The notes beneath the pieces were generated by a model, which was given only the letters and a program-made list of their open reading frames with translations, searched no databases and had not been told where the DNA came from. From Escherichia coli (GTDB lineage Bacteria > Pseudomonadota > Gammaproteobacteria > Enterobacterales > Enterobacteriaceae): 64,000 nt of DNA. Each line of letters starts with the position of its first letter. The stretch's first letter is position 1. The stretch is taken from assembly GCF_044324785.1 (NCBI RefSeq), contig NZ_CP172127.1. The stretch is one strand, 5' to 3'. Shown here piece after piece: positions 2,439 through 7,310 of this stretch. The position numbers were made by a program, and so were the translations under genes.

Positions 2439-3761
2439 TTATTCACTGATACGACGATAGACAGTTGGTGTGCTTTCCGGTGCTTTATCGGCAAGTTTAA
2501 TTGCCGCTTTCACCGCTTTAGCCGCTTCCTGCCAGCTGTTTTCGTCTTTCGCGTGGATAACCGCCAGCGGACGCTGACCGTCTACCTGGTCGCCCAGACG
2601 CGCCATATCAGTAAAGCCGACGCTGTAATCGATGGTGTCAGATGCCTGACGGCGTCCGCCGCCCATTGCAACCACTGCCATCCCCAGCGCACGGGTATCC
2701 ATTTCACTGACAAAACCTTCGGTATCAGCATAGACTGCTTTCGTCAGCATCGCTGTCGGCAGATACTTCGCGTAGTTCTCAACGAAGTCGGTCGGGCCTT
2801 TTTGTGCCGCTACCATACGACCAAAGACTTCTGCCGCTTTACCGTTGTCCAGCACCGCCTGCAATTTCGCGCGCGCTTCGGCGTCATCTTTCGCCAGTTT
2901 GCCGGAGATCAGCATCTCCACGCACAGCGCCATCGTGACATCAAACAGACGCGGGTTACGATACTCACCCGTCAGGAACTGCACCGCTTCACGAACTTCA
3001 ACCGCGTTACCTGCACTGGAGGCCAGTACCTGATTCATATCGGTGAGCAGCGCGGTGGTGCGCACGCCCGCGCCGTTAGCTACGCCAACAATCGCTTCGG
3101 CAAGGGCTTCAGAGAGTTCGTAGTTCGGCATAAATGCACCACTACCCACTTTCACGTCCATCACCAGCGCATCCAGACCTTCCGCCAGTTTCTTCGCCAG
3201 GATCGAGGCAGTGATCAGCGGGATGGAGTCCACGGTTGCGGTAATATCACGGGTCGCGTAGAAACGTTTATCCGCCGGAGCCAGTGAGCTGGTCTGGCCG
3301 ATAATCGCCACGCCGACGTCTTTAATAATTTCGCGGAAACGGTTGTCATCCGGGAAAATGTCGAAGCCAGGGATGGATTCCAGTTTGTCGAGCGTACCGC
3401 CAGTATGACCGAGGCCGCGACCAGAGATCATCGGAATATAGCCGCCGCAGGCTGCGACCATCGGCCCCAACATCAGCGAAGTCACATCGCCGACGCCACC
3501 GGTGGAGTGTTTATCAACAATCGGGCCATTCAGATGCAGGCTTTTCCAGTCGAGAACGGTTCCTGAATCTCGCATCGCCATGGTCAGCGAGACACGCTCA
3601 GGCATTGTCATATCGTGGAAGAAAATGGTCATCGCGAGGGCGGCAATCTGCCCTTCGGAGATAGTGTTGTCGCGAATACCGTTGATAAAGAAACGAATTT
3701 CTTCATCGCTCAGCGCATGACCATCACGTTTTTTACGAATAATTTCTTGTGCGAGAAACAA
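2439..3761 (-). CDS. deoA: Thymidine phosphorylase DeoA (440 aa)
   Basis: [35 protein letters not shown]...; apparent TTG start codon preceded by GGGAGG Shine-Dalgarno. Confidence 0.95.
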
Positions 3762-3887: not shown

Positions 3888-4667
3888 TTAGTAGCTGCTG
3901 GCGCTCTTACCGTCGCCGTGACCCAGCGCTTTCAGCAGGCTTGCCAGCAGGCTGGAAGCACCAAAGCGGTAGTGACGCGCATCAGCCCAGTCAGCACCGA
4001 ACAGTTCATCTGCGATGGCGAGATATTTCTGCGCATCTTCCGCAGTACGCACGCCGCCCGCCGGTTTGAAACCAACGGTTTTTTCTACGCCCATATCACG
4101 GATCACTTCCATCATGATGCGCGCGCTTTCCGGCGTCGCGTTCACAGCCACTTTACCGGTAGAGGTTTTGATGAAGTCCGCACCCGCTTTGATGGAGATT
4201 TCAGACGCTTTACGGATCAGCGCTTCGTCTTTCAGTTCGCCGGTTTCGATGATCACTTTCAGCAGTACATTCGCTGCCGCGCAAGCCTCTTTACAGGCTT
4301 TCACAAGGTCAAAACCAACCTGCTCGTTACCCGCCATCAGCGCGCGGTACGGGAACACAACGTCAACTTCATCAGCACCGTAGGCGATTGCCGCACGGGT
4401 TTCTGCCAGCGCGATTTCGATGTCGTCGTTACCGTGTGGGAAGTTGGTTACCGTAGCAATACGGATTTCCGGGGTGCCCTGCTCTTTCAGCGTTTTGCGA
4501 GCAATTGGGATAAAGCGAGGATAGATACAGATAGCGGCGGTATTGCCGACCGGGGTTTTGGCCTGATGACACAGAGCAATTACTTTCTCGTCGGTGTCGT
4601 CGTCATTCAGGGTGGTCAGGTCCATCAATTTCAGTGCACGCAGGCTGCTTGCTTTCAGATCAGTCAT
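3888..4667 (-). CDS. deoC: Deoxyribose-phosphate aldolase DeoC (259 aa)
   Basis: Protein [52 protein letters not shown]...; start at internal ATG 4667..4665 with AGGAG Shine-Dalgarno. Confidence 0.95.
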
Positions 4668-4711
4668 TTCATTCTCCTGGCTTGTCGCCAATAAAATTCA
4701 CCTTGCGAGTT

Positions 4712-4727
4712 TGTTAGTATTCTAACA
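4712..4727. promoter_or_regulatory. DeoR operator (O2-type) at the proximal deo promoter
   Basis: 16-bp palindrome TGTTAGTATTCTAACA (15/16 match to the DeoR operator consensus TGTTAGAATTCTAACA as I recall it), 45 bp upstream of the deoC start codon. Confidence 0.75.
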
Positions 4728-4740
4728 TCTACTCCGCAAC

Positions 4741-4760
4741 ACACTTCGATATACATCACA
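4741..4760. promoter_or_regulatory. Probable CRP/CytR binding site of deoP2
   Basis: Minus-strand sequence TGTGATGTATATCGAAGTGT contains a CRP-like TGTGA half-site just upstream of the O2 operator; the deo P2 promoter is known to be CRP/CytR controlled. Confidence 0.5.
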
Positions 4761-4924
4761 ATTAAGGAAATCTACTTACAAGTTTGCATCACTGTAATGC
4801 GATCTGGTTCAAATAATTCACTTTCAAATGAATGCGTCAGTGGTGGCAAACGCATCAGGATCAAAGTGAACATCACGAAACTTCTTACAATGGCGCATCA
4901 CCTTCGGCATAAAAGGAAAAGAAG

Positions 4925-6475
4925 ATGCCCACTTCTCATGAAAATGCACTGCAACAACGTTGCCAGCAAATTGTCACCAGCCCAGTGCTTAGCCCGGAGC
5001 AGAAGCGCCATTTTCTGGCACTGGAAGCAGAAAACAATCTGCCTTACCCACAGCTTCCTGCCGAAGCCCGCCGCGCGCTGGATGAAGGTGTAATCTGCGA
5101 TATGTTTGAAGGTCATGCGCCGTACAAACCGCGCTATGTCTTACCCGATTACGCCCGTTTTCTGGCGAACGGTTCCGAATGGCTGGAGCTGGAAGGCGCG
5201 AAAGATCTTGATGACGCCCTCTCTCTGCTGACCATTCTTTACCACCACGTACCGTCGGTCACATCGATGCCGGTCTACCTGGGGCAACTGGATGCGTTGT
5301 TGCAACCGTATGTTAGAATTCTAACACAAGACGAGATCGATGTTCGAATAAAACGTTTCTGGCGTTACCTCGACAGAACCCTGCCAGACGCCTTTATGCA
5401 CGCCAATATCGGCCCGTCTGATTCGCCCATTACCCGCGCGATCTTACGTGCAGACGCAGAGTTGAAGCAGGTTTCACCGAACCTGACCTTTATCTACGAT
5501 CCTGAAATCACCCCTGATGACCTGCTGCTGGAAGTGGCGAAGAACATCTGTGAATGTAGCAAACCGCACATCGCCAACGGTCCGGTGCATGATAAAATTT
5601 TCACAAAAGGGGGCTACGGGATTGTGAGCTGTTACAACTCACTGCCGCTGGCGGGTGGTGGCAGCACGCTGGTACGCCTTAACCTGAAAGCCATTGCCGA
5701 GCGCAGCGAATCGCTGGATGACTTCTTTACGCGCACTCTACCGCACTACTGCCAGCAGCAGATCGCCATCATCGATGCGCGGTGTGAATTCCTCTATCAA
5801 CAATCACACTTCTTTGAGAATAGCTTCCTGGTGAAAGAAGGGCTGATTAACCCTGAACGTTTTGTGCCAATGTTTGGCATGTATGGGCTGGCGGAAGCGG
5901 TTAACTTGCTGTGTGAGAAAGAAGGGATTGCCGCGCGCTACGGTAAAGAAGCCGCCGCAAATGAAGTGGGTTATCGCATCAGCGCGCAACTGGCGGAGTT
6001 TGTCGCCAATACCCCCGTGAAATATGGCTGGCAAAAACGCGCCATGTTACACGCACAGTCGGGGATCAGTTCCGATATCGGCACCACGCCGGGCGCGCGT
6101 TTGCCGTATGGCGATGAGCCAGATCCGATCACCCATCTGCAAACTGTCGCCCCGCATCATGCTTATTATTATTCCGGCATCAGCGACATTCTGACGCTCG
6201 ACGAAACCATCAAACGTAACCCGCAGGCACTGGTACAGCTTTGCCTCGGTGCCTTTAAAGCCGGAATGCGTGAATTTACCGCCAATGTCAGCGGTAACGA
6301 TCTGGTTCGCGTTACCGGTTATATGGTGCGTTTGTCGGATTTAGAAAAATATCGCGCCGAAGGTTCACGCACCAACACCACCTGGCTGGGCGAAGAAGCC
6401 GCACGCAACACTCGTATTCTGGAACGCCAGCCGCGCGTGATAAGCCATGAACAGCAGATGCGCTTTAGTCAGTAA
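4925..6475 (+). CDS. yjjI: DUF3029 glycyl-radical-enzyme-like protein YjjI (516 aa)
   Basis: [33 protein letters not shown]...; divergent from deoC, followed by the radical-SAM activase yjjW. Confidence 0.85.
5311..5326. promoter_or_regulatory. DeoR operator (O1-type) at the distal deo promoter
   Basis: Perfect 16-bp palindrome TGTTAGAATTCTAACA; centre-to-centre distance to the 4712..4727 site is 599 bp, matching the reported P1-P2 spacing. It lies inside the annotated yjjI reading frame. Confidence 0.75.
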
Positions 6476-7310
6476 GATTATCCCCTTCTCCTGCGTTGAC
6501 GGGCCAGGCAGTCGTCTGGCTCTGTTTTTGCAGGGCTGCAATCTGCGCTGCAAAAACTGTCACAATCCGTGGACGATGGGACGTTGCAATGACTGTGGGG
6601 AGTGCGTGCCACAGTGTCCGCATCAGGCGTTGCAGATTGTTGACGGCAAAGTGGTGTGGAACGCTGTGGTCTGCGAGCAATGTGATACCTGCCTGAAGAG
6701 GTGTCCGCAACATGCCACGCCAATGGCGCAATCCATGAGCGTGGATGAGGTGCTTAGCCATATCCGCAAAGCGGTGCTGTTTATTGAAGGGATAACGGTA
6801 AGCGGCGGCGAAGCCACGACCCAACTGCCGTTTGTAGTGGCGCTGTTTACTGCTATCAAAAACGATCCGCAACTGCGCCACCTCACCTGCCTGGTAGACA
6901 GTAACGGTATGTTGAGCGAAACCGGCTGGGAAAAATTGCTCCCGGTGTGCGACGGCGCAATGCTCGATCTCAAAGCGTGGGGGAGCGAATGTCATCAACA
7001 ACTCACCGGACGCGATAATCAGCAGATTAAGCGCAGCATCTGTTTGCTGGCAGAGCGCGGCAAGCTGGCGGAACTGCGTTTGCTGGTAATCCCTGGCCAG
7101 GTGGATTATTTGCAACACATCGAAGAACTGGCGGTGTTTATCAAGGGACTTGGCGATGTTCCGGTACGCCTGAACGCGTTTCATGCCCACGGCGTGTATG
7201 GCGAGGCGCAAAGCTGGGCGAGCGCCACGCCGGAAGACGTTGAGCCGTTGGCTGATGCGTTAAAGGTGCGCGGGGTGAGCCGCTTAATATTCCCGGCGCT
7301 GTATTTGTGA
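6447..7310 (+). CDS. yjjW: Glycyl-radical enzyme activating (radical SAM) protein YjjW (287 aa)
   Basis: ORF with CxxxCxxC and additional Cys-rich ferredoxin-like motifs (...[13 protein letters not shown]...[12 protein letters not shown]...); overlaps yjjI end by 29 nt. Confidence 0.85.

Follow-up and report, generated by a model that had tools for sequence, protein, structure and literature searches.

The window analysed here is a stretch of 64,000 nucleotides of Escherichia coli DNA. The part of the window that concerns us contains deoC (3888..4667, minus strand), the 259-aa first gene of deoCABD, with deoA (2439-3761, minus strand) downstream of it, and the divergently transcribed gene yjjI (4925..6475, plus strand), which encodes a YjjI-family glycyl radical enzyme of 516 aa. 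The two divergent genes are separated by an intergenic gap of 257 bp. deoC was identified from the list of open reading frames and has K-12 and PGAP annotations at the matching position, and the start of yjjI in K-12 (b4380) and in the PGAP annotation is identical to that of the open reading frame at 4925-6475. The 3′ end of yjjI overlaps by 29 nt with yjjW (6447..7310, plus strand), the radical-SAM activase of YjjI by annotation, and the longest conserved run in yjjI (6455-6465) falls within this overlap. Thousands of E. coli chromosomes were 99.7-99.8% identical to the window over the 2.8 kb around these features, with deoC, yjjI and yjjW annotated there.

The YjjI protein matched the family model TIGR04040 (YjjI family glycine radical enzyme) with 787 bits against a cutoff of 498, where residues 11-504 aligned with the complete model (1-497 of 497), and it matched PF11230 (Pfam) with 732 bits over residues 22-504. 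The C-terminal glycyl-radical motif (RVxG[FWY]) is present as VRVTGY, and its residues R462 and G465 are invariant in the family alignment. Judged by family model and motif, the product is a YjjI-family glycyl radical enzyme, and the pairing of yjjI with yjjW was also found at the loci of distant homologues. The protein has been seen by proteomics (PMC6561319). An FNR ChIP peak is located ~93 bp upstream of the yjjI ATG, and the anaerobic activation of the gene is FNR-dependent (PMC3688515). A scan of the deoC-yjjI intergenic region for the FNR consensus returned best matches with 2-3 mismatches only, and did not locate the site.

Two DeoR operators were found between the start of deoC and the 5′ third of yjjI. 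The proximal operator O2 (4712..4727; TGTTAGTATTCTAACA) has one mismatch to the palindrome and lies in the intergenic gap, 45 bp from the deoC ATG (4667). On the minus strand, from which deo is transcribed, it reads TGTTAGAATACTAACA and holds the -10 hexamer of deoP2, TAGAAT (4724-4719), with a TG before the hexamer. The distal operator O1 (5311..5326; TGTTAGAATTCTAACA) is a perfect palindrome with 0 mismatches. On the plus strand O1 falls at codons 129-134 of yjjI (TAT GTT AGA ATT CTA ACA, encoding YVRILT), and on the deo strand it provides an extended -10 element, TGtTAGAAT, for deoP1 (hexamer at 5323-5318). The spacing of O1 and O2, from start to start, is 599 bp. By chance, 0.19 sites with at most three mismatches would be expected in the 64 kb, and two such sites were obtained in none of 100 shuffles. 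The sequences of O1 and O2 are equal to the published DeoR palindromes, TGTTAGAA-TTCTAACA for O1 and TGTTAGAA-TACTAACA for O2 on the deo strand (PMC5326754), and the distance between deoP1 and deoP2 has likewise been published as 599 bp (PMC3334521). The preliminary description had reported two DeoR palindromes at these coordinates and with this spacing, the proximal one intergenic and the distal one at about codons 129-134 of yjjI, and had assigned them to deoP2 and deoP1 by their classical geometry. All of these statements were confirmed, and the codon range turned out to be exact.

The same description had found no convincing third operator at the expected distance of roughly 278 bp further upstream. 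A scan of the 64 kb that allowed up to five mismatches leads to a different result. It returned a site at 5590..5605 (TGATAAAATTTTCACA; 12/16 match), which is the sole site besides O1 and O2 with at most four mismatches. This site is located 279 bp beyond O1 and 878 bp from O2, at codons 222-227 of yjjI (CAT GAT AAA ATT TTC ACA, encoding HDKIFT). Valentin-Hansen et al. reportedly placed the operator OE 279 bp from O1 in 1986. A third deo operator has been described about 300 bp further upstream of O1 (PMC8053113), and natural DeoR looping extends up to 900 bp (PMC4217526). On the strength of its position, its 12/16 match, its conservation across species and the literature, we identify the sequence at 5590-5605 as OE. 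Two of the three operators, together with the whole of deoP1, are located inside the yjjI reading frame.

The promoters show further elements. A pattern scan detected tandem CRP sites upstream of deoC at deoP2. Site 1 (4745..4760) reads TGTGATGTATATCGAA on the deo strand, whereas site 2 (4798..4813; TGCGATCTGGTTCAAA), 53 bp from site 1, has two mismatches to the CRP core and is taken by us to be the second of the tandem CRP sites of deoP2. The sequence of site 1 is that of the CRP ChIP-seq motif for yjjI/deoC in enterotoxigenic E. coli, or ETEC (PMC4287617). At deoP1, a block at 5348..5355 (ATAAAACG; CGTTTTAT on the deo strand, minus) forms an 8-nt run that is at least 95% conserved. It lies at about -37 to -44 from the predicted P1 start, carries the rare yjjI codons CGA141 and ATA142, and is probably the -35/UP region of deoP1. 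Judging by where the -10 hexamer lies, the transcript of deoP1 is predicted to have a leader of ~644 nt (4668..5311, minus strand), which would be antisense to the yjjI promoter region, to its ribosome-binding site and to codons 1-129. A simple sigma-70 scan of 4600-5700 called neither deoP1 nor deoP2, because both are without a good -35 hexamer. The only promoter-like match in that scan overlaps OE on the plus strand, and two terminator-like hairpins were found at chance level. A search of 4400-5900 on both strands for RNA families of the Rfam type gave no known family at E <= 1. We also considered a 72-aa antisense open reading frame (5116-4898, minus strand) within the predicted deoP1 leader as a leader peptide, but it was rejected as spurious, since it contains in-frame stops in 52 of 61 species.

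The location of O1 within coding sequence depends on where translation of yjjI begins. If the 5′ end of yjjI were mis-annotated and translation began downstream of 5326, for example at the methionine of MHANIGPSD, then O1 and deoP1 would be situated in an untranslated leader; the preliminary description had named such a start as the observation that would refute it. The first ten codons of yjjI are indeed poorly conserved, its start codon moves by a few codons between genera, and the searchable literature yielded no N-terminal peptide or ribosome-profiling data for the gene. The family models, however, cover the protein from residues 11 (TIGR04040) and 22 (PF11230) onwards. Full-length homologues (33-57% identity, ~490-530 aa), retrieved by a search among 1.8 billion representative proteins, align from their own N-termini, with their first 5-13 residues on residues 7-23 of YjjI. 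Between positions 62 and 123 the alignment of these homologues contains the invariant residues E62, R70, Y71, P74, G83, L102, Y106, G120 and D123. Codons 11-128 are conserved in a manner typical of coding sequence: across 77 species the majority base accounts for a fraction of 0.92 at the first codon position, 0.94 at the second and 0.62 at the third, a signature shared by the rest of the gene. Residues 1-134 are confidently folded in an AlphaFold2 model. Furthermore, no start codon occurs between the upstream stop and 4925, and a Shine-Dalgarno-like AAGGA precedes the ATG there. In 34 species loci, the ATG corresponding to E. coli codon 1 likewise has no other start codon between it and the preceding stop, and in other loci the yjjI start has likely moved by a few codons. 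OE, at codons 222-227, would remain coding even with the proposed later start. Sequence comparison thus supports the annotated start at 4925. The later start is contradicted by the family models, the distant homologues, the codon-position conservation and the structure model, and we give mis-annotation of the 5′ end almost no credence.

We compared yjjI loci from the genomes of species representatives (n = 80). The set of 77 sequences used for most comparisons consists of 74 loci that reach deoC, two that end short on that side, and the window itself. deoC was divergent from and adjacent to yjjI in all 74 loci long enough to show deoC, in genera that include Escherichia, Salmonella, Citrobacter, Enterobacter, Kosakonia and Kluyvera and extend out to Hafnia and Edwardsiella. 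O1 was present at the same codon position (+386 from yjjI codon 1) in 77 of 77 sequences, with 0-2 mismatches: 55 copies were perfect, 14 read TGTTAAAATTCTAACA, and the remainder had one or two changes. OE was present at +665 in all 77 sequences, of which 65 were identical to E. coli and the others differed by one or two bases. Most of the 74 loci have O2 35-59 bp away from the deoC ATG, and in Hafnia and Edwardsiella this distance is 185-219 bp; the operator had 1-5 mismatches across the loci, and 1-4 if the two Edwardsiella loci are excepted. The distance between O1 and OE was constant at 279 bp, because the reading frame locks it. The distance between O1 and O2, which spans the intergenic region, ranged from 567 to 675 bp across species. 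The O1-O2 spacings clustered at 567-568, 589-592, 596-604 and 612 bp, with a moderate helical-phase resultant length of about 0.5.

Synonymous variation in yjjI was strongly reduced at the operators. Among 398 degenerate codons with a conserved amino acid, only 14 were without any synonymous variation in the 77 sequences, and nine of these 14 fall among the 12 operator codons (hypergeometric P = 7e-13, with the rest of yjjI on the same tree as background, since the species compared are related and their conservation counts are not independent). Entropy at third positions, calculated in windows of six codons, was lowest at codons 129-134 (0.046 bit) and second lowest at codons 222-227 (0.11 bit); the mean over the gene was 1.146 bit. 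Next in rank came codons 508-513, which overlap the start of yjjW, followed by codons 141-146 at the block 5348-5355, the fourth-lowest independent region. The median third-position identity to E. coli was 0.56, and hence synonymous sites are otherwise well diverged. Loci at which yjjI is not adjacent to deoC served as the outgroup, which comprised one genus with nucleotide data (Proteus) and two distant loci. No deoC occurs within 3 kb of yjjI in the four Proteus loci, and neither O1 nor OE is present in them. At the corresponding places, Proteus YjjI reads YVG[ENS]LT and QDAVFGK, and its synonymous codons vary freely there (GTG/GTC/GTT, CTC/TTG/CTT, ACC/ACG). The earlier suggestion that operator and coding function constrain each other is in line with these data, as no other stretches of synonymous sites in yjjI are as conserved as O1 and OE (n = 77), and Proteus has neither. 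These comparative results support a double constraint on the deo operators within yjjI.

The constraint is visible in the codons and in the protein, whose amino acids at these sites depart from those of the wider family. AGA, CTA, CGA and ATA are among the rarest codons of E. coli. The codons AGA131, CTA133, CGA141 and ATA142 cluster at the core of P1, while these four codon types occur only seven times in the whole of yjjI; they cluster there because the core sequence of deoP1 forces them. Residue 131 follows positions 5-6 of the operator and is Arg with AGA, Lys with AAA, Gly with GGA and Ile with ATA. Residue 132 is fixed as Ile (ATT) in enterics and is E, N or S in Proteus, and at OE the enterics have K/N-I-F-T in place of A-V-F-G. 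Columns 130-134 and 222-229 of the family alignment are variable, with gaps in or beside both. In the AlphaFold2 model of YjjI (mean pLDDT 92), a loop of residues 130-134 connects helices 122-129 and 135-152, and residues 222-227 comprise the end of helix 219-226 and the start of the next loop. By alignment and model, most of both O1 and OE maps to variable loops, where YjjI is least constrained.

Taken together, the region 4712-5605 is very probably the classical control region of deoCABD, with deoP1, O1 and OE embedded in the divergent gene yjjI. The region would comprise two tandem promoters, deoP2 in the deoC-yjjI gap and deoP1 599 bp further upstream. The DeoR palindrome of each promoter would contain that promoter's own -10 element (TGtTAGAAT), and a third, weaker operator, OE, would lie 279 bp beyond O1. 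As the -10 element is inside the operator, DeoR bound at a palindrome would exclude RNA polymerase. As a multimer, DeoR can occupy two or three of the sites simultaneously and fold the intervening DNA into loops (O1-O2, O1-OE, O2-OE), which shuts both promoters. Deoxyribose-5-phosphate releases DeoR, and deoP2 is additionally controlled by CRP and CytR. Bridging of O1, O2 and OE by DeoR in single or double loops, and the opening of these loops by deoxyribose-5-phosphate, have been described (PMC8053113, PMC5326754, PMC4217526), and O1-O2 looping by DeoR has been measured in vivo (PMC8053113). For the present DNA, DeoR binding and looping at these sites are predicted from that literature. deoP1, O1 and OE are located inside the yjjI frame because yjjI starts only 257 bp from deoC. 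At O1, the same 16 bases would thereby serve as a DeoR operator, as a sigma-70 -10 element and as six codons of YjjI.

The distant homologues offer a view on the origin of this arrangement. At the loci of yjjI homologues with 57% and 51% identity (the latter 50% in the multiple alignment), yjjW is kept, and the neighbours are unrelated genes and not deoC. By this comparison, YjjI as a family greatly exceeds the deo arrangement in age and distribution. Since the family is old and its distant members are not beside deoC, O1, OE and P1 most likely arose where they now stand, through substitutions in two tolerant stretches of YjjI, in an ancestor of Enterobacteriaceae, Hafnia and Edwardsiella. Selection acting on the DNA itself would since have maintained the sites, and the price would be rare codons and a few amino-acid replacements.

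A different explanation is that the palindromes are conserved for the sake of yjjI itself, through its protein sequence, an mRNA structure or a codon-usage quirk, and that they are not working deo operators, OE being a chance match. OE does match at only 12 of 16 positions, and codons for K, I, F, D and N are A/T-rich by nature. Such a cause would not readily account for the fact that synonymous positions are frozen only at the operator sites, or that the frozen codons include rare, disfavoured ones (AGA, CTA). Moreover, Proteus YjjI has similar amino acids with a free choice of codons and no palindrome. The spacings of 599 and 279 bp agree with the published map, OE is the single site outside O1 and O2 with at most four mismatches in 64 kb, and DeoR looping between O1 and O2 has been measured in vivo (PMC8053113). 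We therefore consider a purely yjjI-internal cause very improbable, and prefer the reading as deo operators under selection within a foreign reading frame.

This reading could be extended to yjjI itself. DeoR bound and looped at O1 and OE might block or trap yjjI transcription and, after its release, strong convergent transcription from deoP1 might lower yjjI expression. The loop between O2 and O1 encloses the yjjI promoter region, and an FNR ChIP peak lies ~93 bp upstream of the ATG; O1 and OE are inside the yjjI transcription unit and are potential roadblocks; the predicted P1 leader would run across the 5′ third of yjjI; and the arrangement is kept in 77 species. However, our literature search found no expression data tying deoR or deoxynucleosides to yjjI, including in the two papers found to mention both yjjI and deoC, regulation of deo alone fully explains the conservation of the operators, and distant yjjI homologues are not beside deoC, which suggests no functional link. 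An effect of DeoR or of P1 transcription on yjjI expression is thus conceivable but rather unlikely. The broader idea is that the embedding amounts to regulatory coupling, in which expression of the anaerobic enzyme YjjI would depend on the availability of deoxyribonucleosides, through DeoR loops and roadblocks in the repressed state or head-on antisense transcription from P1 in the induced state, while the frame also locks the O1-OE distance at 279 bp across Enterobacteriaceae. It seems to us somewhat more doubtful still. A functional link between yjjI and deo through gene neighbourhood was also considered; it was found to be unsupported, as the homologues with 57% and 51% identity are situated among unrelated genes.

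The system in the window is the three-operator looping system of E. coli deoCABD, with the same palindromes, the same 599 bp, a third site and tandem CRP sites, and with no difference in the DNA. This looping system reportedly goes back to work by Dandanell and Hammer in 1985, Valentin-Hansen et al. in 1986, Dandanell et al. in 1987 and Amouyal et al. in 1989. The three deo operators have been known since 1986-89, and when the classical papers appeared yjjI had yet to be annotated. According to one review of looping, operators of this kind are 'outside of the genes' (PMC4217526), and a paper of 2019 places a deoCABD promoter 'in an upstream gene, yjjI' (PMC6389913). Hence, the overlap with yjjI is already known, and neither the operators nor their geometry are new. 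The overlap of the deo promoter with yjjI is also evident from any genome browser. The additions made here are the assignment of OE to codons 222-227 and the comparative evidence for a double constraint, which are a modest refinement and not a discovery.

Looping sites within a reading frame, with a constraint on both operator and codons, are likewise represented by lac O2 in lacZ, gal OI in galE, and the operators in galS and deoR. In these cases the operator follows the promoter and belongs to a gene of the same operon, read from the same strand. In contrast, at deo the promoter, a primary operator and an auxiliary operator are situated in a neighbour on the opposite strand, and the P1 transcript would be antisense to the 5′ third of that neighbour. 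Internal operators in galS and deoR have been reported (PMC3334521). deoP1 also resembles intragenic and antisense promoters in general, in that it combines a sigma-70 promoter within a gene, antisense transcription and a footprint at synonymous sites. Most intragenic promoters mapped genome-wide are weakly conserved and of doubtful function, whereas deoP1 is strong, classically characterised and kept in 77 species.

The region offers a textbook case in which one 16-bp sequence has three roles, as an operator, as a -10 element and as six codons on the opposite strand. It also illustrates that selection on operator DNA leaves a measurable footprint in the host gene: synonymous sites cease to vary, rare codons appear, and a tolerant loop has taken up a few amino-acid replacements. 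In practical terms, deletion or recoding of yjjI will disturb deo regulation, and expression cassettes based on deoP1-P2 carry a fragment of yjjI.

Across the deoC-adjacent yjjI loci L003-L078, the distance between the DeoR operators O1 (5311-5326, within yjjI) and O2 (4712-4727) fell into four main classes of 567-568, 589-592, 596-604 and 612 bp, which were separated by roughly one or two helical turns. Spacings outside these classes were found in Hafnia (626 bp) and Edwardsiella (675 bp). The helical phase of the spacings over the same loci was only moderately concentrated, with a resultant length of ~0.5. One contig, CACSKA010000015.1 (L065), is labelled 'Chryseobacterium sp. 18061', and bears an enterobacterial deoC-yjjI locus with a YjjI of 84% identity, in which both O1 and the third operator, OE, are present. 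Its O2 variant and 568-bp spacing are those of L071 ('Citrobacter sp. 18056') and of the Pluralibacter locus L062. The L065 assembly looks mislabelled or contaminated.

ChIP-seq of CRP in ETEC revealed one peak within yjjI, at 544 bp from the CRP peak of deoP2, and the MEME motif assigned to this internal peak is CGTACCGTCGGTCACA, located at 5248-5263 in the window (PMC4287617). The peak itself maps to ~5297, about 22 bp off the centre of O1. In a pattern scan, O1 and OE (5590-5605) each differed from the CRP core TGTGA-N6-TCACA by just two mismatches. Hence, the internal peak could reflect either CRP bound at an operator-like site or cross-linking via a DeoR/CytR loop. At the outer edge of OE, yjjI codon 222 (5588-5590) reads CAT (His) in E. 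coli, as in a small number of other genera, and AAT (Asn) in most Enterobacteriaceae; its third base, T, is the first base of OE and is invariant.

The 257-bp intergenic region is common to the yjjI promoter and to deoP2 with its CRP and CytR sites. Because an FNR ChIP peak was reported ~93 bp upstream of the yjjI ATG (PMC3688515), the yjjI promoter should lie within the deoC-yjjI intergenic region, at 4728-4924. A pattern scan of this interval for the FNR consensus gave no good match; the best candidates had two to three mismatches, and one of these overlaps CRP site 1 of deoP2 (4745-4760). On the deo strand, a 72-aa ORF (4898-5116, minus strand) runs antisense to yjjI within the inferred deoP1 leader (4668-5311). 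We rejected it as a gene, as stop codons interrupt it in 52 of the 61 species.

Conserved stretches of yjjI were also found away from the operators. Codons 181-182 (AAG CAG) showed zero synonymous variation across the 77 loci and give rise to the conserved run AGCAGG at 5466-5471. A simple scan detected a terminator-like hairpin on the plus strand (5468-5485), with a T-rich tail behind it, and the 5' stem of this hairpin overlaps the AGCAGG run. Since only two codons are involved, chance is a plausible explanation. The longest near-invariant nucleotide run of yjjI, CAGATGCGCTT at 6455-6465, is located in the 29-nt overlap (6447-6475) where yjjW starts within the 3' end of yjjI, as are the low-entropy codons 508-513. 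The yjjI/yjjW overlap is a second zone of dual constraint in yjjI.
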